DNA of 33,718 nt from an uncultured virus (IMG/VR IMGVR_UViG_3300025120_000026) (lineage: Duplodnaviria; Heunggongvirae; Uroviricota; Caudoviricetes). Positions 4,982-26,136 of this stretch are shown piece by piece. The stretch is taken from the IMG/VR virus record IMGVR_UViG_3300025120_000026, one strand, 5' to 3'. A model generated the notes under the pieces. It worked only from the letters and a program-made list of their open reading frames with translations, had not been told where the DNA came from and did no database searches. The first letter of the stretch is position 1; each line of letters begins with the position of its first letter. The translations under genes were made by a program, and so were the position numbers.

Positions 4982-5032
4982 ATTTATTTCTCCTTTTATT
5001 CATTTCTTGTTTTTGTTTTATTTTACTTTGCT

Positions 5033-6471: not shown

Positions 6472-6487
6472 TTTAATTTCTCCATTA

Positions 6488-8035: not shown

Positions 8036-8059
8036 GATGTTGACTCCATGAGAAGGTAG

Positions 8060-10225: not shown

Positions 10226-10227
10226 AC

Positions 10228-11165: not shown

Positions 11166-11166
11166 A

Positions 11167-11421
11167 TTATATATCTCCTATTTGTTTTCTAAATGTTGTT
11201 TTTCTTCTTCTTGTGCTAGTTATTAGTAGCGTCTTTGTTAATTCTTCTATTGTTGTATGTGTGTTTGGGTTTAACGCAAAATGAAACCTAACTCCCATAA
11301 CAACATCGTCATTACAGTCGTCACAACACCTACCCGACTTCACAGGTTCAGCATTGTGCCCCTCGCTCCATCCACTAAGTTCATGAACTTTTATGTCATC
11401 TTTACATATTATACATTTCAT
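11167..11421 (-). CDS. Zn-finger protein
   Basis: CIIC...GHNAEPV..GRCCDDCN, a common small phage Zn-binding pattern. Confidence 0.7.
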   Translation of the reverse strand: MKCIICKDDIKVHELSGWSEGHNAEPVKSGRCCDDCNDDVVMGVRFHFALNPNTHTTIEELTKTLLITSTRRRKTTFRKQIGDI

Positions 11422-11422
11422 A

Positions 11423-11662
11423 TTATATTCCTCCCATTTTACTAATGATAAGGTCTTGACTATTTACAAACTCATGGTAAACTGCATGACCTGAAATAAA
11501 TCCACCTGCATGTCTTTTAGTTCCTAAAAACTCTTCACCACAAGAAGGACAAGTTACCTTTACTATTTGTGCTTGGACATAATATCCATCAGTGGATAAC
11601 ACGTTCATTACTTTATCTACTTCATCTTCTGTTAAATCATCTATATTTTCTTCATTACTCAT
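11423..11662 (-). CDS. C2H2-type Zn-finger protein with acidic N-terminus
   Basis: CPSCGEEF...HAVYH. Confidence 0.65.
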   Translation of the reverse strand: MSNEENIDDLTEDEVDKVMNVLSTDGYYVQAQIVKVTCPSCGEEFLGTKRHAGGFISGHAVYHEFVNSQDLIISKMGGI

Positions 11663-12222
11663 ATGTTCATCACCATCTTATCTATTACATTGTTATTATC
11701 GTTCCACCATCTTTGAATCCATTGAGTTGCCGCACCTGCAATTACCATGTGCATACAATTGATTCCTTCCGGTTTACCATCCCATTCTGAGCCTTGGCAA
11801 CTAAAAGAACCGTCCGGCCCTGCTAGTAAAGTATCCATCAAATTTGGGTCTATTTTGTAAGAAATTAATGCCGCATTTCTTCCTTGAGAACGTAAGTCTA
11901 ACCACTTAAGTTTAGCATCATCACCAAAACCTTGAGAGTAAACTAATCTTCTTGCAGTTAAATTGTCAGCACAACAAATTACTAAGTCATAACCTTGTAA
12001 TTGTTTCTCTACTAATACTTGATATGGGTTAGATTTTGCATTAGCAAAGACATCAACTTTGTTCATACCAAGATGACATTCACTAAAGTTTTGATATGTT
12101 AGATTCTTTTTCTCTACCTTATCATCATCAAATATAGTTACATCATATATTCCTATTCTATCTAAAAAGGATGCTAGATAACTACCTATTCCTCCTGCTC
12201 CTATTATCATTATTTTTCTCAT
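11659..12222 (-). CDS. ThiF/MoeB-family E1-like adenylyltransferase
   Basis: IGAGGIGS, DDDKVEKKNLTYQ, GMNKV, DLVICCADNLTAR; no CxxC Zn pairs; candidate catalytic Cys in GSFSCQ. Confidence 0.92.
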   Translation of the reverse strand: MRKIMIIGAGGIGSYLASFLDRIGIYDVTIFDDDKVEKKNLTYQNFSECHLGMNKVDVFANAKSNPYQVLVEKQLQGYDLVICCADNLTARRLVYSQGFGDDAKLKWLDLRSQGRNAALISYKIDPNLMDTLLAGPDGSFSCQGSEWDGKPEGINCMHMVIAGAATQWIQRWWNDNNNVIDKMVMNI

Positions 12223-12303
12223 TTATTCTTCCTCCTTATCATGTATTGGACATTTAACATTTGCATATAATGTTGAATCCACTAAACACGGACACCATTT
12301 CAT
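12223..12303 (-). CDS. 26-aa Cys/His micro-protein
   Basis: Not in ORF track. MKWCPCLVDSTLYANVKCPIHDKEEE; start overlaps the upstream stop and its stop abuts the E1 ATG. Confidence 0.55.
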   Translation of the reverse strand: MKWCPCLVDSTLYANVKCPIHDKEEE

Positions 12304-12512
12304 TATTTCTCACTCCATTTATTTTTAAATATCAGATAATCTGCTTCTGATACTTCGGAACTAAATATAGTTCCACTGTTCATATGTAAATCAATTAAAT
12401 ATCTAATTGATGCCAACCTAGAACCTTTTACTTTATTCACAGTATATGCACTAACATATCTGAGATTTATTGTTGTCATTCCTCTACTTGTTTTCATTGT
12501 TATTTCATTCAT
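12303..12512 (-). CDS. Hypothetical protein
   Basis: 69 aa ORF with GGAG RBS, in operon. Confidence 0.65.
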   Translation of the reverse strand: MNEITMKTSRGMTTINLRYVSAYTVNKVKGSRLASIRYLIDLHMNSGTIFSSEVSEADYLIFKNKWSEK

Positions 12513-12523
12513 ATTTATTTCTC

Positions 12524-13396
12524 CTATATTCTAATACCATGTATTATTTCATTAACTGAATAGGTATTAAGTTCAGCCTTTGTTATTCCTAATATAATAT
12601 ACAATTGTTTTAGTGCTACTCTAATAGCACCATCAGAACAATTCCATACTTCTACTAAGTTCTTTTGTGTAATATTCATTTCATTAATTTGAGATACCAT
12701 CCAAACTGTTGATGCTAAGAAGTTATCTGAATATCTTATATCTCTTTCACTTAATAAGATATCAATGTATGATACCATATTTATAATATCCATTCTATCA
12801 TCACCTATTACTCCTAGTTTATCTAAAAGTTGTTGTGCAATAATAGTTATATTCCTTTCAGAAAAGATGTGTGCTTTTTTATGAAACTTTGCTATCTTTT
12901 TAGCAACTTTAGATATTCTAGAAGAAGGCACATCCGTTACAGATTGATGTCTCCTAAGAGAAGTAGGTATACTAATCTCCTTTAGTATAAAGTATGTTAA
13001 TCCTGCTGACCTTTCTTCTAGATTATGTCCTTTAAGAACATGTTCGTTTTTTATTGCTCTATAATAAGTATGTACTCTAGTTAACACATCTCTGTTAATA
13101 CTATATTGAGATAATGTTGTAGCAGATAATACTACCATACGTCTATCTGAGACATTTACATTTACATTATGTCTCATATTATTTGATTTTAAATTACCGG
13201 ATGTTGTTATAATTGAACCTAATTGTTTCATATGACTAGACTTACCAATCACACTAGTTCTATATACACTATCTTTAAACTGTACTGTATCTTCAATAAA
13301 GTGAGTGATTTCTACTAAGCCACATTTGTCGCATACTGTCTCTCCTAACCGCTCATCAAAAGATGAGGTTAAACATCCACATTCTTTACAACTCAT
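12524..13396 (-). CDS. tfb: Transcription factor B (TFIIB)-like protein
   Basis: N-terminal Zn ribbon CKECG...DERLGETVCDKCGLV, then two cyclin-like helical repeats (LKGHNLEERSAGLTY; ITQKNLVEVWNCSDGAIR). Confidence 0.85.
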   Translation of the reverse strand: MSCKECGCLTSSFDERLGETVCDKCGLVEITHFIEDTVQFKDSVYRTSVIGKSSHMKQLGSIITTSGNLKSNNMRHNVNVNVSDRRMVVLSATTLSQYSINRDVLTRVHTYYRAIKNEHVLKGHNLEERSAGLTYFILKEISIPTSLRRHQSVTDVPSSRISKVAKKIAKFHKKAHIFSERNITIIAQQLLDKLGVIGDDRMDIINMVSYIDILLSERDIRYSDNFLASTVWMVSQINEMNITQKNLVEVWNCSDGAIRVALKQLYIILGITKAELNTYSVNEIIHGIRI

Positions 13397-14769
13397 AGTG
13401 AGTCCTCTTTTCTTAAAGAACTAATATGTAGTAGTTGACTTTTTAATGACTCAAATTCTTCATCAGATAACCTTTCTTTACCTTCTTTATCATTCTGTCT
13501 AACTATAGTATGGATTAAGTTATTATCTGTTACTATTTTATCATTCATAGCAATATATGCTCTAGTACTAAGTTGGTCACCAACACTAGAGTTATTTTGA
13601 ACATTGTCAATACAAACATTATTTGTACGTAAGTTAATCATCTTATCATTATGATTGAAGGTTAATATACCAAAATCTTTTACTGTATCTTTAGTAAATT
13701 CTTCTCTAAATAAACAATGACTATCTACTAATTGGAAACCTATATGTTTAGTTGCATTATGTTTAGCAATAATTAACCAATCCATTAATTGACCTCTAAC
13801 TAATACTGCCTTTCTAAAATTAGTTTCTGAAGTATTGTTAACTGTTGAAGGTGATATAACCATATTTGTTAAATTAACTCTATGTATGCAGTTTGGAATA
13901 TAGGTTAAGTTAGGAATATTGTTTAATGATTCTAATAGTTCTTCCGCTCTTTTATTTACCATATCTTTTGTTCTATTTTGTCTTAACCAAGCAATCATAA
14001 GACTATGTTGAGCCTCAGAAGGATGAGTTCCTAACAAGGTGAACCATAAATTTCTAGGAGATATATTAAACCATTTTTTAGACCTTTCTGAACCATGTTT
14101 AAATGTATTTACAAAGGTATTCATATCTTTAACAGACATAATACCCCAAACACCATCAGATATTTCTAAGGCTATTTCTTTCTCACTTATTAATTTAGTA
14201 TTAATCCTAACTTCTTGTTTAACACCCACATGGTAGAATTTATATGGTGTTCTATTTTCTAAAGCATATAGAACATTAGATGGGTAAGTTAACATTTTTT
14301 CTACATAATTTTCTAGAACAGAAAGACTATCACAAATAGTTGCTCTCATTACAAACTTAGCAAGAGTTGCTATCATATCTTCCTTAGATAATTTATTATA
14401 ATTAACATGAAAACTTCCTGAAGAATTTCTACCATAGTATAATGTGTAGTCTCCTTCAGAATGAAATCTTCTAGATAACATATTAGTATAAGGCCTAGTA
14501 TCTTCTCTACTAGGAATAAGGATGCGTTTAATTCTTTCTTGTAGCATAGTTAGTACAGGGTCAAGTTTAGACTGTTTACCTGTTACCATTGCTATTCTAC
14601 CAGTTTCAATTTCGTATTCTCCATATTGGTTTAACTTTCTAGTTCTATTTCTTCTACCATAATATACATTATGTAAACTATCTTTAGTAGTTGAAGTAAA
14701 TAAGAAACTTACGGTTTGAGTGTCGTCTTGATTATCATTTGCTGAGCGTATTATAAATTTTACTTTCAT
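13393..14769 (-). CDS. Hypothetical protein with possible E2-like Cys motif near the C-terminus
   Basis: Long ORF with GGTGAA RBS before MKVKF; INLRTNNVCID resembles the UBC active-site loop. Function is speculative. Confidence 0.6.
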   Translation of the reverse strand: MKVKFIIRSANDNQDDTQTVSFLFTSTTKDSLHNVYYGRRNRTRKLNQYGEYEIETGRIAMVTGKQSKLDPVLTMLQERIKRILIPSREDTRPYTNMLSRRFHSEGDYTLYYGRNSSGSFHVNYNKLSKEDMIATLAKFVMRATICDSLSVLENYVEKMLTYPSNVLYALENRTPYKFYHVGVKQEVRINTKLISEKEIALEISDGVWGIMSVKDMNTFVNTFKHGSERSKKWFNISPRNLWFTLLGTHPSEAQHSLMIAWLRQNRTKDMVNKRAEELLESLNNIPNLTYIPNCIHRVNLTNMVISPSTVNNTSETNFRKAVLVRGQLMDWLIIAKHNATKHIGFQLVDSHCLFREEFTKDTVKDFGILTFNHNDKMINLRTNNVCIDNVQNNSSVGDQLSTRAYIAMNDKIVTDNNLIHTIVRQNDKEGKERLSDEEFESLKSQLLHISSLRKEDSL

Positions 14770-15142
14770 TGTATTCACCATATTCATTTTCATTTGATGT
14801 ATAATATTTTTTATAGTGATATATATCATCCACTATACTGTATACTTGTTCTCTATGTATTGAAGTTTGACTAGAACTATGCATACTTTGTTTAATAACT
14901 TGAGCGAATCTTTCTGCATTAGTAGAATGTTCTAAATATCCATTTGTAGCCTGTAATACATTCCTACAAGAACCACTAATGTAATATACTATAGATTTTT
15001 TAAAATCTCTAGCAGTATATCTATGTGATTTATAATTAGTATATGCTAATTTAACATTATCATATTCACCTGTTGCACCAAATAATTCTACAAATTTTAG
15101 AAGTTCATCTTCTATAAACAACATCTGTTTTACTTTACTCAT
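14735..15142 (-). CDS. Hypothetical protein
   Basis: 135 aa ORF in operon orientation. Confidence 0.6.
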   Translation of the reverse strand: MSKVKQMLFIEDELLKFVELFGATGEYDNVKLAYTNYKSHRYTARDFKKSIVYYISGSCRNVLQATNGYLEHSTNAERFAQVIKQSMHSSSQTSIHREQVYSIVDDIYHYKKYYTSNENEYGEYNESKIYNTLSK

Positions 15143-15158
15143 ATTATTATCTCTATAT

Positions 15159-15186
15159 TTTGTTTATGGGCTTCTCACCCACCTGA
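15159..15186 (-). promoter_or_regulatory. Intergenic hairpin element, copy 2 (TGGGT-GAGAA-GCCCA)
   Basis: Matches 3679-3706 with a compensatory change of the flanking pair. Confidence 0.55.
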
Positions 15187-15235
15187 TAACTTAAACCTGT
15201 TACTAGGTGTCCTAATATTGTTATATTAGTCAGAC

Positions 15236-15436
15236 TTAATATCCACCGACAACGGCAGGTACTAAGTTTACGGATTCTACAGATTCCCAGTTTACATCAG
15301 AGATAGATTCTCTTGAAACCATTGTTCCATCTACAAAGACCCAATGGGTCGGATGGTCAACAATGTGTTCAATCATTTCATCTGCATTTACTGTTAATTG
15401 TGTATGTCCTGTTTCATTCATTATTATTAGATTCAT
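15236..15436 (-). CDS. Ubiquitin-like beta-grasp protein (ThiS/MoaD/SAMP-like) with GG-Y C-terminus
   Basis: 66 aa; WVFVDG strand and terminal VNLVPAVVGG+Y match the ThiS/MoaD ending pattern; E1 and JAB genes nearby. Confidence 0.82.
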   Translation of the reverse strand: MNLIIMNETGHTQLTVNADEMIEHIVDHPTHWVFVDGTMVSRESISDVNWESVESVNLVPAVVGGY

Positions 15437-15440
15437 TTAT

Positions 15441-15719
15441 TCATTCACCTCCCTTTTGTGTAAGTTGTGCGCTTAGTTGGTTTAACTGAAGTTGTACTCC
15501 ATCTAAGTTCCTTTGACATTCAATCAATCTACCAGTCAATGTATTCATAGTAAGTTCATACTGTTGACATAACTGCTTATGTTGATTTAGTTGATTAACT
15601 GTTAAGTTATACATTTCAACTAATTTTTGAACATCTATTTGTTGCTGATTTGCATCAGTAACTATAGGTTCTACATCTTCTTGTGGGGCTTCAGTTTTTT
15701 CTTTTTTGTTTTTACTCAT
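15441..15719 (-). CDS. Gln-rich coiled-coil protein
   Basis: Heptad L/Q pattern; GGAGTGA RBS before MSKNK. Confidence 0.7.
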   Translation of the reverse strand: MSKNKKEKTEAPQEDVEPIVTDANQQQIDVQKLVEMYNLTVNQLNQHKQLCQQYELTMNTLTGRLIECQRNLDGVQLQLNQLSAQLTQKGGE

Positions 15720-16848
15720 TTGTATCACTCCTTTTTCTATCCATGTGAATTTCATCTATGGCTTTGGATGCTGATGTTTTTGTTAAAGTTGCGTAGTCTC
15801 CTTGGTATCCTAAATTTCTGAGGTAGGCTATTTGTTTCTGACTAGCCGCTTCATTGTCTCGTTGTAAGATGTTCATAAGGGTTTCCAATTGTTTCTCCGT
15901 CGGGTCACGATAGTTAATTAATCTTGACTTCATATCCGTCAAAAATGACCTTTCCCAACCATTACCCGCATCTTCTGCGGTGAAATATTGTATACCGTAG
16001 TACTCACATCTTTCAGCAAGTTGCTTTTCTGAAGCAGATAACTGATTCATACGAATAATGTCATCTTTTGTGCTAAGTGATAGATTATCTAAGTAATCTT
16101 TACGATTATTAATCTTAGTATCTTCTTCTTTAAGAGAAGAGATATGTTCTGTAATCATAGCACTAAATAAATGCATATCATTCATTAGTTTATCATCAGG
16201 ATAACCTCTTCTATCTATTTGACTTCTTTGATTATCGGGATGATTCCATCTCCAAACAATACTAGACATAACATAATCAGGTGTTCCATATCTTCCACTA
16301 CCAGTCTTACGAATTTTAGTTACAGGTCTATACATCTTAAGAGATTCATCAAAGTATGTTTTACCAGTATGTCTGACGTTAATTCTTAAATCTAAGTCCT
16401 TTATCTCATTAAATAATGTTTCAAACTCTTCTCCATTTTCTTCCCACCAAGCATCACTGATTAAACGTTTAACTGTGGCAGATTTCCATTCTTCAATCAT
16501 ATCTTCTGTAATAGTAGACTCATCTATCTTTAGAGTTTCAGTCATATGTCTTAGAATCATCCAATTACCAATACAGGTTGAACCAACTATTTCTTTAACT
16601 TCAGTTAATGTATTTTCTATTTCAAAATGGTATGCAATCGGATGACCACATAAACACTTAGAAGGATGTCCACTTGGGTGATTCCTTACTTGAGTTGGAA
16701 TACCATTTGAGTTATCGTATAACTGAGTGTTTGTTGCTCTCCAAACATTACCTGTTATTCTCCATTCTAATTTAGCCTCTTCATAATCATCAGATTGAGA
16801 TAGTGCTAATAGTTTAGATGTTAGTCTTGGGTAATTTGATTGACTCAT
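15712..16848 (-). CDS. Hypothetical protein with Zn-binding motif
   Basis: CLCGHPI...GSTCI; two C-terminal (T/S)xKQ..(Y/T)L..(I/L) helical motifs. Confidence 0.75.
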   Translation of the reverse strand: MSQSNYPRLTSKLLALSQSDDYEEAKLEWRITGNVWRATNTQLYDNSNGIPTQVRNHPSGHPSKCLCGHPIAYHFEIENTLTEVKEIVGSTCIGNWMILRHMTETLKIDESTITEDMIEEWKSATVKRLISDAWWEENGEEFETLFNEIKDLDLRINVRHTGKTYFDESLKMYRPVTKIRKTGSGRYGTPDYVMSSIVWRWNHPDNQRSQIDRRGYPDDKLMNDMHLFSAMITEHISSLKEEDTKINNRKDYLDNLSLSTKDDIIRMNQLSASEKQLAERCEYYGIQYFTAEDAGNGWERSFLTDMKSRLINYRDPTEKQLETLMNILQRDNEAASQKQIAYLRNLGYQGDYATLTKTSASKAIDEIHMDRKRSDTNE

Positions 16849-17090
16849 TCAAGTTCCTCCTGTTCATAGGCTCGCATATCTAATAAATGACCAGTTAGTA
16901 AATCATTTATCTTATCAAATAATGCTTCAGCACATCCACCTATAACTTTTCGGTGGAGAGATAACCATATCTTATGTGCATTATTTAACACAACTTTAGG
17001 TTCATCATTTTCATTCATCGTTATTACTATTGGTGGCATTTCTAAATCATTCACCAATCTAAATTCTACATTCGTTTCTTTATTTATCAT
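16845..17090 (-). CDS. Hypothetical protein
   Basis: 81 aa ORF overlapping both neighbours. Confidence 0.65.
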   Translation of the reverse strand: MINKETNVEFRLVNDLEMPPIVITMNENDEPKVVLNNAHKIWLSLHRKVIGGCAEALFDKINDLLTGHLLDMRAYEQEELE

Positions 17091-17715
17091 TTTTATTTCC
17101 TTCTTTATTCTTCTTTTCTCTTTTCTGCATATGTGTCATTTTAGCAGTTAATGAAGTATTCCATACTTTACTTTGTTTTTTCATTTTACTCAATTCTTTT
17201 TCTAATCTTATTACTTGAGTATTAAGTGATGCTACTTTAGCATTTAATTTACCCATAAGAGAATTGTCTACATCTTTATCTAATATTCTTTCTACTGCCT
17301 TATCTATAGCAGATGTTATCTTCTTTCGTTTTGCTACAGTATAATCACTTAGTTTATCTACATCATCCCAAACTTTGAAGTCTTGTTTTAACTTCGATAG
17401 AGATTCTTCTACCTTAGTAACTCTAGCCGCAACTCCTGAGGTGTATGTATGTTCTCTAGCAAAGTTAATATTTTCTAATCCCATTTGTTTCCTTACCCAT
17501 TCTCTCATTGCCATTTCATCAGCAACTAATTTATTTGTATTTCTTGTTTTAACATTTAAAATTGGGTTAGGAACGTGAGGACTAACAGGTAAGTGGTCAT
17601 CGCAATACTTACGATTCGCTCTAATAGAATACACACTAAACGGTTTACCACACCTACCATCTTCTACAGGTTGTAGGCAATACCTAATATTTCTAGTTGA
17701 TTTTCCACCGGACAT
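17080..17715 (-). CDS. Zn-finger plus coiled-coil protein
   Basis: C...RCGKPF...YCDDH followed by long heptad repeats. Confidence 0.7.
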   Translation of the reverse strand: MSGGKSTRNIRYCLQPVEDGRCGKPFSVYSIRANRKYCDDHLPVSPHVPNPILNVKTRNTNKLVADEMAMREWVRKQMGLENINFAREHTYTSGVAARVTKVEESLSKLKQDFKVWDDVDKLSDYTVAKRKKITSAIDKAVERILDKDVDNSLMGKLNAKVASLNTQVIRLEKELSKMKKQSKVWNTSLTAKMTHMQKREKKNKEGNKNDK

Positions 17716-17987
17716 TATATTACCTCATAAAAATACGGTAATACGATAGGTATCCAATCATGTAGTAAATATCCCATTATTAATAATCCTATTATCCATA
17801 GTGTATCATCAACCATCCAATCAATCATCCAATCTTCACCATTAATTTCATATTCTAACCTAGCCTTTTCTTTACGGGCGTTAAATAATGTAGATATAGC
17901 AGATATTGGTAATGATATTGGTAATGTAATTACATTATAGATTCTAATCAATGTATTAACTTTTGATATTTCTTTTTCATAACTCAT
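17715..17987 (-). CDS. Small membrane protein
   Basis: Two hydrophobic segments (VITLPISLPISAISTLF; LWIIGLLIMGYLL). Confidence 0.65.
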   Translation of the reverse strand: MSYEKEISKVNTLIRIYNVITLPISLPISAISTLFNARKEKARLEYEINGEDWMIDWMVDDTLWIIGLLIMGYLLHDWIPIVLPYFYEVI

Positions 17988-18169
17988 ATTCTATCCCTCA
18001 TTTCTGCTATCTCATTTAAGATTCCATTCATTGTCATACCGATAACCGATATGGCATCATCTAAGATAACCTTCCTCATACTAGATAGAGGAGGAAGGGT
18101 TTCATAGACATCTACAAAATCATTATAGTGTTTCTGTAGTAGTTCTAATTTCTTTAGAAGTTCTTCCAT
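17984..18169 (-). CDS. Hypothetical helical protein
   Basis: 61 aa with GGAGG RBS, coupled to neighbours. Confidence 0.6.
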   Translation of the reverse strand: MEELLKKLELLQKHYNDFVDVYETLPPLSSMRKVILDDAISVIGMTMNGILNEIAEMRDRI

Positions 18170-18339
18170 TATTCTTCCTCCTCAAATGTAGAGCCTACAA
18201 TATTTCCTAAAAATATATCTAATTCACATAGACATTGACATTTTTCAATATCATGTGAACCATCAGATAATTGAACCCATACATATCCTTTATTATCACA
18301 CTCTACACAATTTCTTTTATATTCACTCCAATTTTTCAT
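18169..18339 (-). CDS. Small Zn-finger protein
   Basis: Not in ORF track. MKNWSEYKRNCVECDNKGYVWVQLSDGSHDIEKCQCLC...EEEE fills the gap exactly. Confidence 0.65.
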   Translation of the reverse strand: MKNWSEYKRNCVECDNKGYVWVQLSDGSHDIEKCQCLCELDIFLGNIVGSTFEEEE

Positions 18340-19818
18340 TTAAGCACCTACTCTTTCGCCAACATAGTTTAATGTCTTTTTTGCTCTAGTTATTGCAACA
18401 TAGCAAAGGTTACGTTCTTGGGCTTTAGCCGATACTGATTTAGCCATAGGATGAGGCATAACTTCAGGCTTTAGAATCCAAACATTATCTGCTTCTAATC
18501 CTTTAGCCTTATGTATAGTAGAGAAGATAACTCCTCTCTTCTTACCGTCACCGAATATCTTCTTGATGTTATCTAACAATCCTTGAACAGTACTAGTGTT
18601 ACCAGTTAGATGTAAGATACATTGTGCTTTATCTTGCATTGATACAACTGCGTTTTCTTTGTCAGCCCTTCTGAATGCTTCACAAGCAACTTCAACATGT
18701 GCGTTTAATTGTGGAATGAATTGTTCAATTCTCATTGAGCCATTCTCTGTTACTTTCTTAATAAGTAATTGTAGTGAATAACCAATGTCTCTACCTAATA
18801 CAAAGGCAGGTATACCTTGAGCGATTAGATTAAAACATTCTCCAACTAAAGGAGCATTAACTCTACATAATACTAAGTCACCAACACTAGGGTTGAAAGA
18901 AACATTAGTGTTAACTTCACCTTCAGGAGCATCTTCTCTACAAGTATATCCTTTAAAGAATCTGTTTGCTTCTGCAACTACAGTCTTAGGACATCTCCAA
19001 GTAATAGATAACTCAAACACCTTAACTTTTCTAGGTGAATCAGATAGAGTCTTGTGAAACATATCCATACTTGCTGAATCTGCCCCACGGAAACCATAAA
19101 TTGCTTGCTTTGGGTCACCAACTACAATCATTCTTCCACCGTTACAAGATTTAAGAATTAACTTTCTTTGAACTTCATTGAAGTCTTGTGCTTCGTCTAC
19201 GAATAACGTATCGTAGTGTCTAACAGGTAAATCCATAACTACAGGTAGCCAAATCATATCATCGAAGTCAACAGTAGATAAATCCATACAGTTATTGATA
19301 ATTGTAGGGAAGTAATCTAACGCAGTACTTCTATCTTCAAGACCATCAAACTCAATGTCATATTCATCAATTAAAGATAGTAAAGATTCTTTATCACTAG
19401 CATCTACTAGAGATGATTTAGATAGAGATACTAACTTAACTAGTGCAGGGGCAGATTTGTATTTACCTAATACACTGTTAATGATTTTGTATACTTTCTT
19501 GTTATCTACTTTAGATACTCTTGATTGCTTTTTGATTGCAGAAAAGCCTAGACTATGAAAAGTCATTGCTTCACAATCAGATGGCAGTTTAGTTCCTAGT
19601 TCAGTAGCAATGGCTTTGTTAAAGGCTAGAAAACCTTTACTTCCATTAACTGATTTAGCACTTTGAACTATGGTAAAAGTCTTACCTGTTCCTGCACCTG
19701 CATATACCATTACATGACTTTCGCCGTGGGCTATTTCGTTCCATATTTCATCTTGTTCTTCAGTTCCTTGTATATTATATAACGCATTTAATCTGTATAA
19801 TTTTTTATTCATCTTCAT
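18340..19818 (-). CDS. UvrD/Rep-like superfamily 1 helicase
   Basis: AGAGTGKT, DEAQD, VGDPKQAIYGFRGAD, TWRCP, STIHKAKGLEAD, YVAITRAK. Confidence 0.95.
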   Translation of the reverse strand: MKMNKKLYRLNALYNIQGTEEQDEIWNEIAHGESHVMVYAGAGTGKTFTIVQSAKSVNGSKGFLAFNKAIATELGTKLPSDCEAMTFHSLGFSAIKKQSRVSKVDNKKVYKIINSVLGKYKSAPALVKLVSLSKSSLVDASDKESLLSLIDEYDIEFDGLEDRSTALDYFPTIINNCMDLSTVDFDDMIWLPVVMDLPVRHYDTLFVDEAQDFNEVQRKLILKSCNGGRMIVVGDPKQAIYGFRGADSASMDMFHKTLSDSPRKVKVFELSITWRCPKTVVAEANRFFKGYTCREDAPEGEVNTNVSFNPSVGDLVLCRVNAPLVGECFNLIAQGIPAFVLGRDIGYSLQLLIKKVTENGSMRIEQFIPQLNAHVEVACEAFRRADKENAVVSMQDKAQCILHLTGNTSTVQGLLDNIKKIFGDGKKRGVIFSTIHKAKGLEADNVWILKPEVMPHPMAKSVSAKAQERNLCYVAITRAKKTLNYVGERVGA

Positions 19819-19849
19819 ATTATTATTTCTCCTTATTTGTATTTATCAA

Positions 19850-20305
19850 TGAGCATTATCGCTCAGGGAATGTGATAGTGGATGCTGGAAGTCTAAGGGG
19901 TAACAAACCCTTGCAGTAGGCAGAAACAAAAAAAAGAAAATGTTTTTAGACGATTAGTTGCAATACCAGCGTGAGTAGTTTGCGGAAGGATAGTAATTAA
20001 TCCTTTTTATGGGTAAACCGCAGGGGTTGGATATCGAGGTAAGATATCAATGGTTGTGAGTGTTAGGTTGAAAGGAAAGAATTAACGTACTATGCCGTTT
20101 TCCACGAAAGTCACTGAGTATCTATGACTTGATACACGTATTATATATTTACAGTCTTTATACTACTATTTTTTTTATAGCGCATAGTATCTAATTAAGT
20201 GTACTCACTAGATTAAAGACAAACTTTCTAAATATCTTTTCGGTGATGTTTCTTTTTGTTTTCGTTAGCCATAAACTAACTTTCACAAACTTACGCATCG
20301 CCACT
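19850..20305. ncRNA. Candidate structured non-coding RNA or long leader
   Basis: ORF-free with many nested inverted repeats (GCTGG/CCAGC, GTCTAA/TTAGAC, TGCGG/CCGCA, AAGGAT/ATCCTT, GTCTTTA/TAAAGAC, GGTGATG/CATCGCC). Confidence 0.3.
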
Positions 20306-20419
20306 TTTCTTATTATTGGCAAACCTTTCAGTTTTCCTAGATTGCAAGTTATCTTAAAGAGCCGCTAAGCAATATATAATTACCTTGGTCATCAATCTTG
20401 GGAATGGGATATGATTATC

Positions 20420-20760
<341 letters not shown>

Positions 20761-20960
20761 ATAATCAATCGGGATATGAAGGCAATCAATCAATGGCTTA
20801 TATTGGTACTGAATATTTACTCCTTTACTCACTAAGGCATTATAGGCATCATTAGGAATGGTTGCGCTTTTGATGTGACTGATATACCTCAATATGGTCA
20901 TGAGGGTATATAAAGGAAACCCACCCATGCGAGGAATCCACAGAATAACTCTTACCTATT

Positions 20961-21000
20961 ACCATATGGTTGTACTTTGGCAGACAACCACATTAATACT
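20961..21000 (+). promoter_or_regulatory. CCATATGG palindromic element copy 1 (right arm only) plus TATA-like box
   Basis: ACCATATGGTTGTACTTTGG then CATTAATACT. Confidence 0.7.
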
Positions 21001-21058
21001 TAATTCCCTAAATAATATTGTCAAACGGGTTGGATAACTAACTCAGAGGTGAAATAAA

Positions 21059-21547
21059 ATGGTAAAAATAGATTATGAACAATTTAAAGAACAAACGATG
21101 AATCACATTAATGATACTGATGTGTGCGATAAAGGTACACTCAGTGTTATCATTAATATGTTTAAAACTGCTGATGTTAACACTAGAAGGCGAAGTGGAG
21201 TAACAACAGGAATCAAAGAGATTACTAGAGGATTGCCTGATGGCCCTAACTTTAGCAATCCTAACGCTCCTGTACGTGCTGGCTTCTCAAGTGAACTTCT
21301 AATGTTACTTGCGCCCTATTATGCAATATGCAAAACAATGGGTGAGCAGTATGACGAAGGTGGAGATGTGCTTAGAGCAATCTTGACCCCTCGTAAATCT
21401 AAAGACCGCACTCACTATTCAAATGGTGCGGAATTCGCAGAAACTTTGGTTAACTCCATGAACGGAGTAATCAAGGCCGCTATCAAAGACGGAAGTTTTG
21501 ATGGCTTAACAGAAGAATCTTTAGTTAACCTCTTGGAGGCTAACTGA
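21059..21547 (+). CDS. Hypothetical protein (cassette 1)
   Basis: 162 aa with strong GAGGTGA RBS. Confidence 0.85.
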   Translation: MVKIDYEQFKEQTMNHINDTDVCDKGTLSVIINMFKTADVNTRRRSGVTTGIKEITRGLPDGPNFSNPNAPVRAGFSSELLMLLAPYYAICKTMGEQYDEGGDVLRAILTPRKSKDRTHYSNGAEFAETLVNSMNGVIKAAIKDGSFDGLTEESLVNLLEAN

Positions 21548-21577
21548 AGTTAACTTGAAGGCCTGTTTGACGCTTTA

Positions 21578-21682
21578 GAAAGTTAAGGGATAACACGATA
21601 TGATTATTACGTCCGTGAATAGACTCAAAATCATCAATGTGTATATCCCTTAACTTTCCCCTTCTTTTTTTTTTTATTTTTT
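21578..21682 (+). terminator. 81-nt hairpin plus U-tract
   Basis: GAAAGTTAAGGGATA (21578-92) pairs with TATCCCTTAACTTTC (21644-58), 15 bp perfect; poly-T follows. Confidence 0.75.
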
Positions 21683-21698
21683 AAAATTTTTGGGGTTG

Positions 21699-21756
21699 TT
21701 ACCAAAGTACAACCATATGGTCATACACTTTGGTAAGATATGACCATAAGTACTAA
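21699..21756 (+). promoter_or_regulatory. CCATATGG palindromic element copy 2 plus TATA-like box
   Basis: TTACCAAAGTACAACCATATGGTCATACACTTTGGTAA then CATAAGTACT. Confidence 0.75.
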
Positions 21757-21775
21757 TTTCTACTAGTAATTACAG

Positions 21776-21961
21776 TTTGATGCAGTAAAGAACGAACTAG
21801 GAAAGACCTACCAATATGAAATTGAAATCGGAGAAATGAAAGCGGGTTCGGAAATTGTGAGAGTGTTAAAAACTCTTAAAGTCCGAGGCGATGACTTAGC
21901 GGAAGTATTAGAACAAGTTAAGTTATCATTGAAAGTAGTTGATACAATGGAGTTGAAATAA
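21776..21961 (+). CDS. Small hypothetical protein (cassette 2), start uncertain
   Basis: Open frame FDAVKNELGK...MELK whose stop overlaps the next ATG; first in-frame ATG is at 21836. Confidence 0.5.
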   Translation, partial: FDAVKNELGKTYQYEIEIGEMKAGSEIVRVLKTLKVRGDDLAEVLEQVKLSLKVVDTMELK

Positions 21962-22320
21962 TGCCTTTATTAATTGGAGTAAAAAATGGAATTGAAAAAG
22001 GATTCACAGAGAACGAACTTGATATTATCAATAGTTTACCTTTTGGTGTTCTTATGATGTCATCTCTAACGGGAGTTATTGAAGATGTTAACGAATTTAG
22101 ATTAATGGTTTTAGAAAAAAATTTTATTACTAAGATATACCCTACAAGTTTCCTTAAAGAATTCTTATCAGAAGATATGGTCACAAGGATGAAAGATGCT
22201 GATTGGTCTTGTAACGTTGGTACAACTACAAGAGCAAAATTTAACAAAGAAGTAAAAAGAATATTATATTCACAACATAAAGAGCATTTTACTAATTACC
22301 TAATGGGGGATGAAGAATGA
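21961..22320 (+). CDS. Hypothetical protein (cassette 2)
   Basis: 119 aa, TAATG/ATGA coupled. Confidence 0.75.
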   Translation: MPLLIGVKNGIEKGFTENELDIINSLPFGVLMMSSLTGVIEDVNEFRLMVLEKNFITKIYPTSFLKEFLSEDMVTRMKDADWSCNVGTTTRAKFNKEVKRILYSQHKEHFTNYLMGDEE

Positions 22321-22487
22321 GTTATAATATAATTCGTTTTTACTTTGATAAGCCTTCTAGAGTAATGGAAAAAGGCTTAACATTAGAAGAGGCTCAAGAA
22401 CATTGTCGTGACCCTGAAACAAGTGGCTCAACTTGTTCGGACTTGTCAAAGCGTGGTCAATGGTTCGATGGATATGAGGAGGCTTAA
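22317..22487 (+). CDS. Small phage-type hypothetical protein
   Basis: Not in track. MSYNIIRFYF...GLTLEEAQEHCRDPETSGSTC...WFDGYEEA. Confidence 0.75.
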   Translation: MSYNIIRFYFDKPSRVMEKGLTLEEAQEHCRDPETSGSTCSDLSKRGQWFDGYEEA

Positions 22488-22490
22488 GTT

Positions 22491-22661
22491 ATGGCTGAGT
22501 TATTTCAAAGAAGGCATTTTAATTGGATAGCGGACTTACTGGGAGAGTTAGACTTGAGCGAGTCTGACTTAACCTATGTTATACAACAATTAGAATATAC
22601 GAACAACAACTTTAACGCTGATAGATTCAGAGAGGCAGTTAAGGCACATAGCATTAATTGA
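22491..22661 (+). CDS. Small phage-type hypothetical protein
   Basis: Not in track. GGAGG RBS; MAELFQRRHFNWIADLL...NFNADRFREAV. Confidence 0.75.
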   Translation: MAELFQRRHFNWIADLLGELDLSESDLTYVIQQLEYTNNNFNADRFREAVKAHSIN

Positions 22662-22695
22662 GGGGGCTTCGGCCCTCTCTTTTTTTTTATTTTTT
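22660..22695 (+). terminator. Hairpin (UUCG loop) plus U-tract terminator
   Basis: GAGGGGGC-TTCG-GCCCTCTC then long T-run. Confidence 0.85.
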
Positions 22696-22713
22696 ATGAT
22701 TGTAGGCTTGCTA

Positions 22714-22762
22714 ACAAAGTACAACCATATGGTTGCTCTTTGTGGTAACCCACCATATACTG
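22714..22762 (+). promoter_or_regulatory. CCATATGG palindromic element copy 3 plus TATA-like box
   Basis: ACAAAGTACAACCATATGGTTGCTCTTTGT (30-bp near-perfect palindrome) then CATATACT. Confidence 0.8.
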
Positions 22763-22810
22763 AATTATCCTGTTATATAACAGTTCAACCCGAACCAAAG
22801 GAGATAAAAG

Positions 22811-23659
22811 GTGAAAAAAATGACAAATGATGAAAATACACACATGACAGATAAAGACGTAAAAGAAATTAATGATTTACTTGATAATTGGAAAATATTG
22901 AATTCCGATTGGAAAAAGATGAACGGATTACCTCAAGCCCTCAATATGTGGGCTAAGAGAAGCGTAACTCCTGTTAATCGTAAATCTGCTCTCACTAGTT
23001 TGAAATTAATATGGAAATCCGCATCCAGTGCGGTTGAATACCGTGAAGAAGGTCGAACAGATGCCGATGATATCAAAAGTGGTTATCTAAATACTAAAGG
23101 GGAAGGATGGAGAAGTCCTTTTTCTTCTAGAGCAACCTCAACAGTCGATGCAGATACGGAAACCGTAATATCGAGCATAATATCAGCGAGAGCGAATATG
23201 GCTACTTTAATTGATGGTATTTCTAATGGTGATGATATTTTAGATATCTATGAAGCCCCAGTAGGGGATATCCCAAAAGAGACAAAGGAGAAAATGAGTA
23301 ATATTGAATTATTAGCATTTGCTCAACAACATGCACTTGAAGAAGTTGAAGAAGTTCTTGAAGCATGGGCAAAAACTCTAGTATTGGAAACACTTCCGTT
23401 GAGTTCGATAAATCCGAACCAACATAACTTAAGTTTCAAGACTACGTTTGATATATTATCTCAAAATGCTACCGTCAGCAAATTAAGACAATATCGAAGA
23501 GCCTTCGATGAAAAATTAGATAGTACGTATACTAATAAGGACAAAAAGGAGGTTCTAATTGCCCGCCATAAGGTAAAATGGTCAGGAAAGTTAGAAGATG
23601 CTCCAGTTATCAACTATACGCCCCTTCCTAGGCAAAAAAATGGAGATGAGGAAAAATAA
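22811..23659 (+). CDS. Hypothetical protein (cassette 3)
   Basis: 282 aa ORF; start is GTG 22811 (GGAG RBS) or ATG 22820 (GGTGA RBS). Confidence 0.85.
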   Translation: MKKMTNDENTHMTDKDVKEINDLLDNWKILNSDWKKMNGLPQALNMWAKRSVTPVNRKSALTSLKLIWKSASSAVEYREEGRTDADDIKSGYLNTKGEGWRSPFSSRATSTVDADTETVISSIISARANMATLIDGISNGDDILDIYEAPVGDIPKETKEKMSNIELLAFAQQHALEEVEEVLEAWAKTLVLETLPLSSINPNQHNLSFKTTFDILSQNATVSKLRQYRRAFDEKLDSTYTNKDKKEVLIARHKVKWSGKLEDAPVINYTPLPRQKNGDEEK

Positions 23660-23666
23660 GAGAAAA

Positions 23667-23705
23667 TGGTTCGGGTTGAACCACTTCTTTTATTTTTTTT
23701 GTTTT
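23667..23705 (+). terminator. 3' arm of long-range inverted repeat plus U-tract
   Basis: TGGTTCGGGTTGAAC is the exact reverse complement of 22783-22797; T-rich tract follows. Confidence 0.7.
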
Positions 23706-23722
23706 CCGAGAACCTGTATTCT

Positions 23723-23773
23723 CAAAGAGACAGAACCATATGGTTGCACTTTGTAGCAATCACATTAATACCT
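23723..23773 (+). promoter_or_regulatory. CCATATGG palindromic element copy 4 plus TATA-like box
   Basis: CAAAGAGACAGAACCATATGGTTGCACTTTG then CATTAATACC. Confidence 0.75.
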
Positions 23774-23791
23774 AATTTACTTAGTTATACC

Positions 23792-24034
23792 ATGCAACAA
23801 TCAAAAGAAGTAATCATCCCAAGAGCAATTAAAGAAAGTAGACGTGAGAATATCGCATTAGGTTATGGTGGTAAACTTAGCCGAAATCAAATGATAGGAT
23901 TAAAAATAGCAATTAGAGAAAAACATGCTAGCGCAATTGATATGCGTATTCCTTGGCATCCTCGCTCCGCTCAGTTAGAATACGAGGCACAACTTAGGAA
24001 GAAAGCAAATAAACATGCTTCATCTTCTGCATAA
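23792..24034 (+). CDS. Small basic protein, probably leaderless (cassette 4)
   Basis: ATG lies 21 nt after the TATA-like ATAC; the longer track ORF runs through a terminator and the repeat. Confidence 0.65.
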   Translation: MQQSKEVIIPRAIKESRRENIALGYGGKLSRNQMIGLKIAIREKHASAIDMRIPWHPRSAQLEYEAQLRKKANKHASSSA

Positions 24035-24037
24035 TAC

Positions 24038-24333
24038 TCCTGTTACATAAAGGGCTAGCCCGTAACAATAGCCAAAGATAGTCATTACAAAGCGCAGTCA
24101 CTCCGATACAAGCACACTACGCCATTCACAAGTTTACTGAATACTAGTAAAACAGCAAACTCCCTGTTGGAATTGCCTTCTGTACGTGCATCACATAAGT
24201 CGAAATTCACTGTGACTATCCGAGGCTTCACACTCCTCAAACCAACAATAAAACAACTCAAAGACAGACCTAACGCTTCTCAGAAGGCTACCTGATTTGA
24301 CACGTTTTATTGTTGGTTTTGACCTTTTTTTTT
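24038..24333 (+). ncRNA. Candidate structured RNA / long 3' element ending in an 81-nt hairpin and U-tract
   Basis: TGTTAC/GTAACA, GATAGTCA/TGACTATC (24077/24213), TTTACT/AGTAAA, AACAG/CTGTT, GAGG/CCTC, and a 16-bp stem 24239-54/24304-19. Confidence 0.55.
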
Positions 24334-24358
24334 GTTATTCAAGTTTGGTTCTATTAGC

Positions 24359-24408
24359 CAAAGTATAGAACCATATGGTTGCACTTTGTAGCAATCAGAC
24401 TTATACTA
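24359..24408 (+). promoter_or_regulatory. CCATATGG palindromic element copy 5 plus TATA-like box
   Basis: CAAAGTATAGAACCATATGGTTGCACTTTG then CTTATACT. Confidence 0.75.
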
Positions 24409-24426
24409 ACTATTACTCGTTAACTC

Positions 24427-25299
24427 ATGGTTAAGCAAGATTGCATATATGAACGAACGATGACAGTAACTTATGAGCGTAAGGGTGATGCTCTCTATTA
24501 CGATGAATTTAATGATATTAAGGAAAACATAAATAGAGAGTTATATGAAAATGGTTATCCTTTAGTTAGTACTTATTCCCTTCAATCATTTGATGAATTA
24601 GATGAGTATGATTATTATCCTAAAGTAAATAAAAGAAAAGAAGAAAAATTCTTTGTTAGAACTACTTCTGAAGATGATGGCGAAATATATACATTAAGTG
24701 AGAATCATTGGAAAGACGACGCACAAAGTGTAATAACCGCAGTAAAATTTTATGCTTCGTTAAATAATTTACCCGCTCCAGTCATACAATTAGAAACAAA
24801 GGTAACTGAAACCAAGAATACATCTAGACCTACTTGTAGTTATAGAAATTTAGTTCCCTATGTTTTTACAAGTGATGATAATGATACATCTAAACTAGAT
24901 GATTTGTTATATGATGTTGTATCTAGAAACGTTGCATATAGTCAAGACACGGTTCTAAGAATTAGTGAAGATATAGATGAGGAATCTAACGAAAATAACT
25001 ATTCAACAGTAAAAACTACTCTTGAGATTGGTAAGTTACATACCACATTAACATTTAGTGTTCAATGGGAAGCCCCAGTTAAATCAACTAAGGCTAACAT
25101 TGAGCATCATTTAGTAACTCTGCCCGAATTATTAACGGCTAAAGTTATGAATGTTGTCGAAGCAATTCTTAAGGATAATTGGGATTTAGACGAAGATAGC
25201 ACTACTATTGATTGTGTTACACAGTCTAACATTAATACTCAAGCCGAGTGTTCTCCGGCGGTTATTTCCTCACTCAGGAAGACTAAAGCAGAATTGTAA
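24427..25299 (+). CDS. Acidic hypothetical protein, probably leaderless (cassette 5)
   Basis: 290 aa; no RBS; ATG 21 nt after ATAC. Confidence 0.85.
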   Translation: MVKQDCIYERTMTVTYERKGDALYYDEFNDIKENINRELYENGYPLVSTYSLQSFDELDEYDYYPKVNKRKEEKFFVRTTSEDDGEIYTLSENHWKDDAQSVITAVKFYASLNNLPAPVIQLETKVTETKNTSRPTCSYRNLVPYVFTSDDNDTSKLDDLLYDVVSRNVAYSQDTVLRISEDIDEESNENNYSTVKTTLEIGKLHTTLTFSVQWEAPVKSTKANIEHHLVTLPELLTAKVMNVVEAILKDNWDLDEDSTTIDCVTQSNINTQAECSPAVISSLRKTKAEL

Positions 25300-25307
25300 A
25301 CTTAACC

Positions 25308-25375
25308 CCCTGTAGGGTCTATCGTTAGTTAACGGTAGGCTCTGCGGGGTCTTTTTTTTATTTTTTATTTTTTTT
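25308..25375 (+). terminator. 19-bp G-U-rich hairpin plus U-tract
   Basis: CCCTGTAGGGTCTATCGTT-AGTT-AACGGTAGGCTCTGCGGGG; five G-U pairs indicate a plus-strand RNA structure. Confidence 0.8.
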
Positions 25376-25399
25376 AGCCCCTCTCCACCCAAGATAACT

Positions 25400-25431
25400 A
25401 CAAAGTATAATCTACAACCATATGGCTTTGT
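25400..25431 (+). repeat. CCATATGG element copy 6 (asymmetric, closes the array)
   Basis: ACAAAGTATAATCTACAACCATATGGCTTTGT; no adjacent ORF. Confidence 0.7.
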
Positions 25432-25801
25432 GTTTAAAAATTTTTTTTTCTTTTATTCATTATTTTATTTAAAACGTAGTGTTTTTTATTAATTTTAACG
25501 TTTTTTAATGCTAAATAACTTAATAATTATAACTAATAAAACAATTATTAAAGGGCCACTCTATTAATTAAAACATACAAGGAAACAAGCACATAAAAAT
25601 CGAAGATTTTTTGTGCGTGATAATAAATGCTAATAACTACAACGCTTATTGTGGGAATAGGAAGTTAAGAAAAAAAAAATCGCCGCTAGTGGTAAAAAAA
25701 TTCCAGCCCATTTTCTGAAAAATAAAGGGTATAACTATTTTCCCCGCATAAATTGTTTTAGGCTAGGTAATAATCCGCTTTATTATTAGGGATGTGGTAT
25801 A

Positions 25802-25939
25802 ATGAGTAAACAGAAAGAAAGATTAGTTAAAGAATTATGGACAATATTAGGGGATAACGTATATTCGCTAACAGAATCGCAAATTAGGGACTTAAAATTC
25901 TATATTTTAGAGCAATCTAATCAGGTGAGCGTTTTATGA
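25802..25939 (+). CDS. Small hypothetical protein
   Basis: Not in track. MSKQKERLVKELWTILG..., ATGA-coupled to the next ORF. Confidence 0.6.
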   Translation: MSKQKERLVKELWTILGDNVYSLTESQIRDLKFYILEQSNQVSVL

Positions 25940-26136
25940 TAGGAATTAATGCTAGTTTGTATGCAATTGATGGTGATTTAAGTCAAATGGATGAAAATGA
26001 TTTAATAAATTATATTTGTAAGACTTATCGTTTAGAACCGGATACTTTTAGGGCATTGACCACTACGGATAGATTAAGGCTTCATTGTCAATTGGTTAGA
26101 AATGATAAAATTAACAAAATGAACCTAGGATATTAG
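25936..26136 (+). CDS. Hypothetical protein
   Basis: 66 aa with GGTGA RBS. Confidence 0.65.
   Translation: MIGINASLYAIDGDLSQMDENDLINYICKTYRLEPDTFRALTTTDRLRLHCQLVRNDKINKMNLGY

Follow-up and report, generated by a model that had tools for sequence, protein, structure and literature searches.

Covarying end-to-end pairing in the predicted messages of two gene families from an uncultured, probably magrovirus-like marine virus

Background

Can the two ends of a single viral message be held together by base pairing, with the whole coding region closed in between? The question is raised by a group of short genes in an uncultured virus (IMG/VR record IMGVR_UViG_3300025120_000026, Caudoviricetes), from which a stretch of 33,718 nucleotides (nt), hereafter the window, was analyzed. 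The genes stand in five or six short plus-strand transcription units, or cassettes, within 20957-25431. A preliminary description of this DNA proposed that the messages of cassettes 1 and 3 (21020-23681) have complementary 5' and 3' ends that enclose the entire open reading frame (ORF), and offered nuclease protection, ribosome recycling, 5'-dependent termination, or circularization by archaeal splicing machinery as uses of such a closed loop. In prokaryotes, pairing between the untranslated regions (UTRs) of one message is known from a few bacterial cases, and for archaea only a functional interplay of the UTRs has been reported; among the papers listed by full-text searching of the literature, none described base-paired mRNA ends in archaea or archaeal viruses.

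We conclude that two monocistronic viral mRNAs, those of cassette 1 (family A) and cassette 3 (family B), have probably been selected to fold into a terminal panhandle, which would make a closed and protected message whose opening is tied to translation. The complementarity of the ends, its compensatory conservation, the sense-strand bias, and the restriction to two families make this a supported structure as far as sequence comparison goes, and its function is what we infer.

Results

Complementary ends of cassettes 1 and 3

The ORF of cassette 3 lies on the plus strand at 22811-23659 and encodes 282 amino acids (aa) if it starts at GTG 22811 and 279 aa if it starts at ATG 22820. Its 5' arm, GTTCAACCCGAACCA at 22783-22797 (plus strand), is the exact reverse complement of the 3' arm, TGGTTCGGGTTGAAC at 23667-23681 (plus strand), giving 15 perfect pairs and a computed duplex of -27.8 kcal/mol. 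The 3' arm starts 8 nt past the TAA stop codon (23657-23659) and lies directly ahead of a T-rich run (23685-23705, plus strand; repeat family D1), as first described. The pair is GC-balanced in a genome of ~32% G+C, the value of the window, and is located in the two UTRs of a single gene. The first 22 nt of the predicted transcript score -27.8 kcal/mol at the 3'UTR site versus -14.1 kcal/mol at the next-best site in the unit. The 3' arm also folds locally (TGGTTC-GGG-TTGAACCA, followed by CTTCTTTTAT; -9.3 kcal/mol), and 23667-23683 together with CTTCTTTTAT is listed as a hairpin with T-tract in the consensus terminator scan, so that the earlier claim of no local terminator hairpin in cassette 3 was wrong. 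Because the 3' arm and this hairpin share the same bases, the panhandle and the local hairpin exclude each other. For the 5' arm, a weak local hairpin is possible (-2.3 kcal/mol).

In cassette 1, with its ORF of 162 aa at 21059-21547 (plus strand), the core duplex joins GTCAAACGGGTT (21020-21031) to GGCCTGTTTGAC (21560-21571) through 9 Watson-Crick and 3 G-U pairs. The core helix is extended by the weaker TAACT/AGTTA and TCAG/CTGA, with which the 5' arm covers 21020-21046 and the 3' arm 21541-21571 (both plus strand), the latter spanning the TGA stop codon, which is itself paired (CTGA with TCAG). The core with its three G-U pairs and both extensions is present as claimed, with a duplex of -25.2 kcal/mol, and the first 22 nt of the transcript score -21.4 kcal/mol at the 3'UTR site versus -10.8 kcal/mol at the next-best site in the unit. 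A long terminator-type hairpin (21578-21658) and a T-tract follow, together covering 21578-21683 (plus strand; repeat family D1), with a 15-mer inverted pair at 21578/21644 and the hairpin present in the full-transcript fold. Both pairings are retained in the minimum free energy and centroid structures of the full predicted transcripts, and the two full-length folds have z-scores of -4.0 and -9.1. Close relatives of cassette 1 carry GTCAAATGGGTT on the 5' side (locus L079) and GGCCCATTTGAC on the 3' side (locus L080), a C-G to U-A exchange compared with the window, and in the same relatives TCAG/CTGA has become TTAG/CTAA, stop codon included.

A block shuffle of the window gives a mean of 0.37 perfect 15-mer inverted pairs within 3 kb. 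A chance origin of the pairing is ruled out by this shuffle, by the best-partner scores, and by covariation in both families (described below), and we consider the point settled because the pairing is conserved in homologues. Two further perfect inverted repeats, 3306-3322/4530-4546 (17 nt) and 16378-16393/19147-19162 (16 nt), are AT-rich, lie inside minus-strand coding sequence, and also exceed the block-shuffle expectation.

Specificity of the pairing among cassettes

From the window and loci L011-L088 of related viral contigs we cut 144 cassettes, each bounded by two copies of the palindromic promoter core described below and oriented by its longest ORF; the cassette definitions rest on custom scripts and fixed sequence ranges. 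Duplexes of -25 kcal/mol or lower formed by the 5' end with the final 150 nt were identified in 43 of 144 cognate versus 38 of 1152 non-cognate pairs, and strand-neutral DNA alignment scores of at least 24 in 41 of 144 cognate versus 11 of 858 non-cognate pairs. When sorted by ORF cluster, strong pairing was present in 32 of 39 family A and 9 of 9 family B cassettes and in none of each of the 12 other families listed, with the remaining 2 of the 43 strong cases belonging to small groups outside that list. A partner scan of each unit found no comparable end pairing in cassettes 2, 4, and 5 of the window. Pairing as a general cassette property was thus not borne out, being specific to two gene families. 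Distances from the helix to the next hairpin were not used because, with wide ranges, the duplex program appended spurious pairs on the outside.

The arms of family A differ widely among viruses. Of 38 possible partners, the cognate 3' region nevertheless ranked first for 27 of the 38 family A 5' ends, cassette 1 of the window among them, and third or better for 33; several of the failures had a 5' probe cut short by a miscalled start codon. For family B, the cognate 3' region was the best partner in 7 of 9 cassettes.

Covariation in homologues

For family B, the protein collection contains 22 relatives, and a relative is encoded at 14 metagenome loci. Alignment A2 comprises 11 cassettes, namely the window and ten loci containing both ends, and in all 11 the 5' end reads AGTTC-NNNN-GAACTA..., with the complement in the 3'UTR just past the stop codon. 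The four central bases vary by lineage and stay complementary, being ACCC/GGGT in most, GGGT/GCCC in L077 (one G-U pair), and GAGC/GCTC in L079, while the window has AACCC/GGGTT, with an extra base on both sides. Two pairs outside the core run from A-U over G-U to G-C and from C-G over U-G to U-A, and their 3' bases track the 5'UTR rather than the local 3' partner. Over 17 pairs, 97.3% of 184 cells are paired and 5 pairs have changed on both sides; 3 of the 5 unpaired cells belong to the window row, misaligned by one base by MAFFT at the co-insertion. The covariation score is 0.225 versus 0.106 in shuffled alignments (reached by 0 of 500), and slid controls are 12-44% paired.

For the 17 alignable members of a family A subclade (alignment A4), 14 pairs were scored and 94.0% of the 234 cells are paired; changes on both sides were seen for 10 pairs and 49 cells, and as many as four pair types occur at one position. 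Here the covariation score is 0.560 versus 0.166 in shuffled alignments (0 of 500), with slid controls 48-56% paired, and the extreme ends are conserved as 5' GCUUC... and 3' ...GUNGC. The preliminary description had named covariation of the arms in homologues as the check to make and a lack of conserved pairing as grounds for abandoning the idea; the covariation proved strong in both family B (5 of 17 pairs) and family A (10 of 14 pairs), and the pairing is kept throughout at the proportions given above.

Some further features were observed. In columns 6-7 with 653-654 of A4, helix position 4 is a conserved U-U mismatch and position 3 has a variable partner, and the two are bordered by G-C, C-G, and C-G pairs that never vary, right where the helix ends; this could be a protein recognition site or reflect a constraint from the initiator sequence. 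Loci L031, L032, L036, L058, and L070 have two family A cassettes each, and in the first four each copy has its own, mutually different arm pair, the second copy in L070 being weak (-14.9 kcal/mol). In the 5'UTR of the cassette-3 homologues of L075-L086, a second local hairpin is located ~15-30 nt past the start, just ahead of the Shine-Dalgarno motif; it covaries (GTATC/GATAC versus ACATC/GATGT), and its 5' half can join an extended panhandle. Cassette 3 of the window has a shorter leader without this second hairpin.

Selection at the RNA level

In strand-neutral alignments of 36 distinct panhandles, we counted 44 sense G-U versus 14 A-C mismatches (binomial p 1e-4), or 30 versus 14 without family B (p 0.02), and for 29 of the 36 the antisense mirror was less stable than the sense duplex (Wilcoxon p 5e-5), with all these p-values being indicative only because the cases are not independent. 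Since recombination or a DNA-binding protein predicts no bias to sense G-U, the excess points to selection on the sense RNA and argues for selection acting on RNA, not DNA. The early suggestion that the use of G-U pairs signals RNA-level selection was in this way borne out. As for the closed-loop interpretation, its central part, that the 5' end pairs with the 3' region at the RNA level, agrees with the covariation, the cognate specificity, the G-U excess, and the positions where the arms start, and its proposals of 5'-dependent termination and circularization by splicing were not supported, nor was generality among cassettes.

Promoter layout and predicted transcript starts

Each unit is preceded by a near-perfect palindrome, CAAAGTACAACCATATGGTTGTACTTTG, of 24-28 nt with the core CCATATGG and the half-sites CAAAG/CTTTG. 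The search pattern has 6 matches in the window versus 0.03 expected, at 20957-20980, 21702-21733, 22714-22742, 23730-23755, 24358-24389, and 25406-25431, and elsewhere in the nearest viral record, of 86 kb, no palindrome was found except one bare CCATATGG. The palindrome is probably the binding site for a dedicated regulator of one temporal gene class. A TATA-like box lies ~20-30 nt past the core, and each unit ends with a hairpin and T-tract, the terminator scan of 19800-26000 listing 12 sites versus 3.3 expected. The plus-strand element of cassette 1 at 20957-20980 (core at 20962-20969, half-site CTTTG; repeat families D6 and I3) is followed by the TATA-like box CATTAATAC at 20991-20999, read from the sequence with a spacing calibrated on leaderless cassettes, and that of cassette 3 at 22714-22742 (core at 22725-22732) by the box CATATAC at 22754-22760, with a predicted start at ~22782 (A), all likewise on the plus strand.

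Archaeal promoters have a TATA box near -26, and leaderless messages begin at or next to the ATG. Cassettes 4 and 5, with an ATG at +49 from the core, are leaderless in appearance. Among related viral contigs, 64 loci match the exact 19-nt promoter pattern, and the same palindrome, TATA-like box, and start codon ~49-50 nt past the core recur across them. An ATG at +47 to +54 is present in 45 of the 144 oriented cassettes, with the peak at +49/+50 (27 cases), and in the 95 cassettes outside families A and B start codons peak 38-40 nt past the CTTTG half-site (39 of 95). Based on the TATA and leaderless rules and these start-codon peaks, we place the start site ~48-51 nt past the core, and therefore predict starts at ~21018-21020 for cassette 1 and ~22782 for cassette 3, where the 5' arms begin. 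Family A arms begin 37-41 nt past the CTTTG half-site in 15 of 21 cassettes, and in family B the A of AGTTC stands 40-42 nt past it in 9 of 9. The concern that the 5' arms might lie upstream of the true start is thereby answered as far as promoter spacing can predict it, with the arms beginning at the predicted start sites. An RNA-library contig of a close relative ends at most 3 nt from 21020, which is a weak hint, as contigs cannot prove a start.

These observations define the promoter layout of the virus group, with a palindrome, a TATA-like box, and a start ~50 nt past the core; in the main texts of the magrovirus papers searched, promoters, palindromes, terminators, inverted repeats, and intergenic regions go unmentioned. 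Cassettes 1 and 2 are in tandem in window 20957-21733, whereas in L079:1-620 the homologue of cassette 1 is on the opposite strand and shares with cassette 2 a single palindrome that drives the two divergently; the palindromic promoter cores may be breakpoints for cassette inversion.

Proteins of the two families and RNA-library data

The cassette 1 protein had no match in Pfam, PHROGs, or Protein Data Bank (PDB) sequence searches, and the cassette 3 protein none in Pfam or PHROGs. The AlphaFold model of the cassette 1 protein is all-helical with a mean predicted local distance difference test (pLDDT) score of 68.8, and Foldseek with this model returned no match at E <=0.001. A protein atlas search for the two proteins gave no usable match. 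Family ORFs range over 160-320 aa, with those of family A at 162-227 aa, and a common origin of families A and B is not supported, since their profile-profile comparison reached a probability of just 5.5%. Homologues of the cassette 3 protein were not found in the viral collection by peptide patterns, nor in 48 related viral records by a search that had no positive control and is uninformative. Single-sequence patterns likewise found no cassette 1 homologues in the viral collection, and the distant relatives of cassette 1 surfaced only via promoter-motif loci.

In three marine metatranscriptome runs from one study, 6% of the sampled words were present. Contigs from these runs cover parts of the relatives' cassettes 1, 2, 4, and 5, including the counterparts of window 21020-21556 and 24031-24190; cassette 3 is among the uncovered parts, which is no evidence either way. 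The contig depth was highest in relatives of the cassette-4 region, which is not proof of expression because such libraries can contain DNA.

The virus and its gene content

A minus-strand gene block (125-19818) and a plus-strand block from 21059 face each other across an AT-rich gap. The minus-strand block encodes a family B DNA polymerase, a replication factor C (RFC)-type clamp loader, an ATP-dependent DNA ligase, and a UvrD-like helicase, with the clamp loader identified as the NCBIfam replication factor C small subunit (E 3e-81, under the curated cut-off). Magroviruses of marine group II archaea are described with a gene set of family B polymerase, RFC clamp loader, and ATP-dependent ligase (PMC5434244), and have genomes of ~90-100 kb. 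The window contains this archaeal-type replication gene set, and the 86-kb nearest record is identical across window 20900-24332; no near-identical phage records were found. From this gene content, the virus is probably an uncultured, marine, magrovirus-like virus of an archaeal host, an assignment held at that strength because the best phage-collection matches of the clamp loader are T4-like cyanophages (~34% identity).

Several other features of the window were recorded. A 290-aa ORF at 12524-13396 (minus strand) combines a TFIIB-type zinc ribbon at its N terminus with weak similarity to each of the two TFIIB repeats (Pfam E 7e-5; NCBIfam PRK00423 E 3e-6; neither reaches the cut-off); as a putative virus-encoded TFB-like factor, it might read the palindromic promoters. 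The family B polymerase ORF at 125-1765 (minus strand, 546 aa) matches polymerase profiles over no more than approximately their first two thirds (positions 26-557 of 856 in PHROG), and its stop codon lies inside the window; it may be part of a split gene like the one reported from magrovirus group B, the remainder being beyond the window start. The 1.2 kb between the divergent gene blocks (19819-21058) is AT-rich and free of ORFs of at least 60 aa. It contains AT-rich palindromes (20562-20615), and near 20000 the cumulative GC skew is at its lowest, making the stretch a candidate for a replication origin, unless it is no more than a control region for the divergent blocks.

Discussion

Anatomy and proposed function of the panhandle

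The helix begins at the first nucleotides of the transcript, as placed by the predicted start, and in most strong panhandles the start of its 3' strand is within a few nt of the stop codon's end, on one side or the other, with the stop codon itself paired in the cassette-3 homologues and in cassette 1. The Shine-Dalgarno motifs GGAG/GGTG lie downstream of the 5' arm, unpaired and outside the helix, and the 3' arm is usually followed by a separate hairpin and then, where present, a T-run. A local 5'-terminal hairpin involving the first 4-5 nt is thermodynamically predicted as an alternative in 17 of 17 leaders of the family A subclade and in most of family B.

We propose that, during transcription, the 5' arm would first make this short local hairpin, which the longer and stabler 5'-3' helix would displace once the 3'UTR has been synthesized. 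The first 12-25 nt, from within ~2 nt of the start site, would then be paired with a stretch that starts at or just past the stop codon and ends just ahead of the terminator-type hairpin and T-tract. In bacteria, a base-paired 5' end blocks 5'-end-dependent decay. Here the helix would hold the 5' end paired and tied to the structured 3' end, giving a closed, nuclease-resistant message, and ribosomes terminating at a stop codon inside or beside the helix would open it, which would link message lifetime or re-initiation to translation. More tentatively, and as a reading less likely than not, archaeal viruses could be using programmed mRNA folding, in which a 5' hairpin is swapped for a panhandle of 12-25 bp including the stop codon, and a closed loop independent of cap and poly(A) and opened by ribosomes sets lifetime or re-initiation.

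Several points weigh against the proposed protected message. Transcript ends are predicted, and the RNA data are assembled contigs of relatives, unable to show ends or strand. The compensatory change in cassette 1 is pieced together from two contigs (L079 and L080), not one molecule. Both arms can fold locally, so a share of the molecules may never form the long-range helix, and with the Shine-Dalgarno motif outside the helix there is no obvious translational switch. With fixed ranges, 7 of 39 family A cassettes are weaker than -25 kcal/mol, among them cassette 1 of the window, whose 3' arm lay outside the scanned range. Because the sequences share ancestry, the shuffle, binomial, and Wilcoxon figures make the cases look more independent than they are, and the archaeal host is deduced from gene content and promoter layout alone.

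Alternative explanations

The main alternative to protection is ribosome recycling or translational coupling, in which terminating ribosomes are passed back to the start of the same message. We judge it unlikely as the chief role, even with the stop codon in or next to the helix, and near the 5' ribosome-binding site, in most strong panhandles, with the cassette 1 stop codon paired as CTGA/TCAG, and with the Shine-Dalgarno motif remaining free downstream of the 5' arm. Against it, pairing begins precisely with the first nucleotides, and in family A a closing G-C/C-G pair is retained at the extreme end, for which reason end protection fits better than mere proximity. Control of termination or read-through, by a 5' arm that builds a terminator helix or blocks the local terminator hairpin, is a minor alternative with a slim chance of being right. 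It draws on cassette 3, where the 3' arm consists of the bases of the local hairpin before the T-tract, an overlap that is not general because most family A cassettes, and cassette 1 of the window, have past the 3' arm a separate hairpin that is also stronger; moreover, archaeal termination depends on T-tracts rather than hairpins. The preliminary description had invoked 5'-dependent termination to make up for a missing hairpin in cassette 3, an argument that lapses with the local hairpin there and the separate hairpin past the 3' arm in most homologues.

The arms could instead matter as DNA, as recombination or inversion sites, transposon-like ends, or two sites for one protein, kept alike by conversion or co-evolution, and the chances of this are slimmer still. 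A single ORF flanked by perfect inverted repeats in cassette 3 and the inversion of cassette 1 in L079 are what such a mechanism might leave, but the inversion is accounted for by the promoter palindromes, not the arms. Every cassette has its own arm sequence, with no common recognition site; internal loops are tolerated in the helices; and neither the 44:14 sense G-U bias nor the 29 of 36 stabler sense duplexes is predicted by a DNA mechanism. Neither ORF showed a recombinase or transposase domain in the domain and sequence searches, and with arms that differ the cassettes do not resemble transposons with terminal inverted repeats or invertible segments. Slimmest of all are the chances of a processing or circularization signal, whether for a double-strand-specific cut or for ligation of the juxtaposed ends. 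The panhandle would put the ends side by side, and circularization of some RNAs occurs in archaea, but the bulge3-helix4-bulge3 pattern was identified in 0 of 46 strong duplexes, in line with the first failure to find a canonical bulge-helix-bulge and contrary to the idea of circularization by the archaeal splicing machinery. Rfam 15 gave no match at the gathering score, the three in 20800-25600 scoring 21.7-24.5 bits versus 60-382, and the RNA contigs contained no joints, though contigs are poor evidence here. A closed message with protected ends therefore remains our preferred reading, with recycling as its main competitor.

Significance and comparison with known systems

If the programmed folding into a closed message is real, it would be the first base-pair-resolved, comparatively supported 5'-3' mRNA end interaction in the archaeal domain, and one confined to two viral genes. 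The same architecture is present in two gene families over dozens of uncultured marine viral contigs, and the evidence is of the type accepted for structured RNAs, with up to four pair types per position and a sense G-U bias. It offers a testable model for closing messages without a cap or poly(A), with the natural compensatory variants as a ready set for reporters, and the pairing marks two uncharacterized, evidently important magrovirus-like genes.

The genomes of influenza viruses, bunyaviruses, and flaviviruses have panhandles or cyclization sequences, which the present elements resemble in terminal complementarity, conserved extreme ends, and covarying inner pairs. Those, however, are genomic RNAs for RNA-dependent polymerases, whereas ours flank single mRNAs of a DNA virus that encodes a family B DNA polymerase. 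In Staphylococcus aureus, the icaR 3'UTR reportedly pairs with the Shine-Dalgarno region and blocks translation, unlike the messages described here, in which the ribosome-binding site is not in the helix. Base pairing of one mRNA's 5' UTR with its 3' UTR has been described for icaR (PMC3868564). For haloarchaea, Brenneis and Soppa (2009) reported that both UTRs are jointly needed for translational control (PMC2636863); as presented in their abstract, this interplay is functional, with no base-pair model or covariation, whereas ours is given base by base and known from sequence alone.

The closest counterparts are bacterial. In the hbs mRNA of Bacillus subtilis, a 14-bp UTR-UTR helix limits nuclease access and links stability to translation (PMC5737220), and the cassettes share with it a similar helix length and a monocistronic gene. 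Whereas our helix takes in the first nucleotides, that of hbs overlaps an RNase Y site within the leader, and it is a single-gene bacterial case for which the abstract reports no family-wide covariation. In the hok mRNA of the type I toxin-antitoxin system of plasmid R1, the tac/fbi pairing joins the extreme 5' end to the 3' end region after a local 5' hairpin has formed first, co-transcriptionally (PMC9841398). The hok closed form sequesters the Shine-Dalgarno sequence, with 3' trimming and an antisense RNA completing the circuit, whereas here GGAG/GGTG lies outside the helix and no ribosome-binding site is sequestered; and where hok encodes a small toxin, the present messages encode proteins of 160-320 aa in a virus whose host is probably archaeal. 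What the panhandles have in common with hok is 5'-3' end complementarity (from a predicted start), compensatory changes, and a predicted alternative 5' hairpin: like hok, they would adopt a closed and stable full-length form, with the local 5' hairpin predicted in all 17 members of the family A subclade and a long-range helix that covaries.

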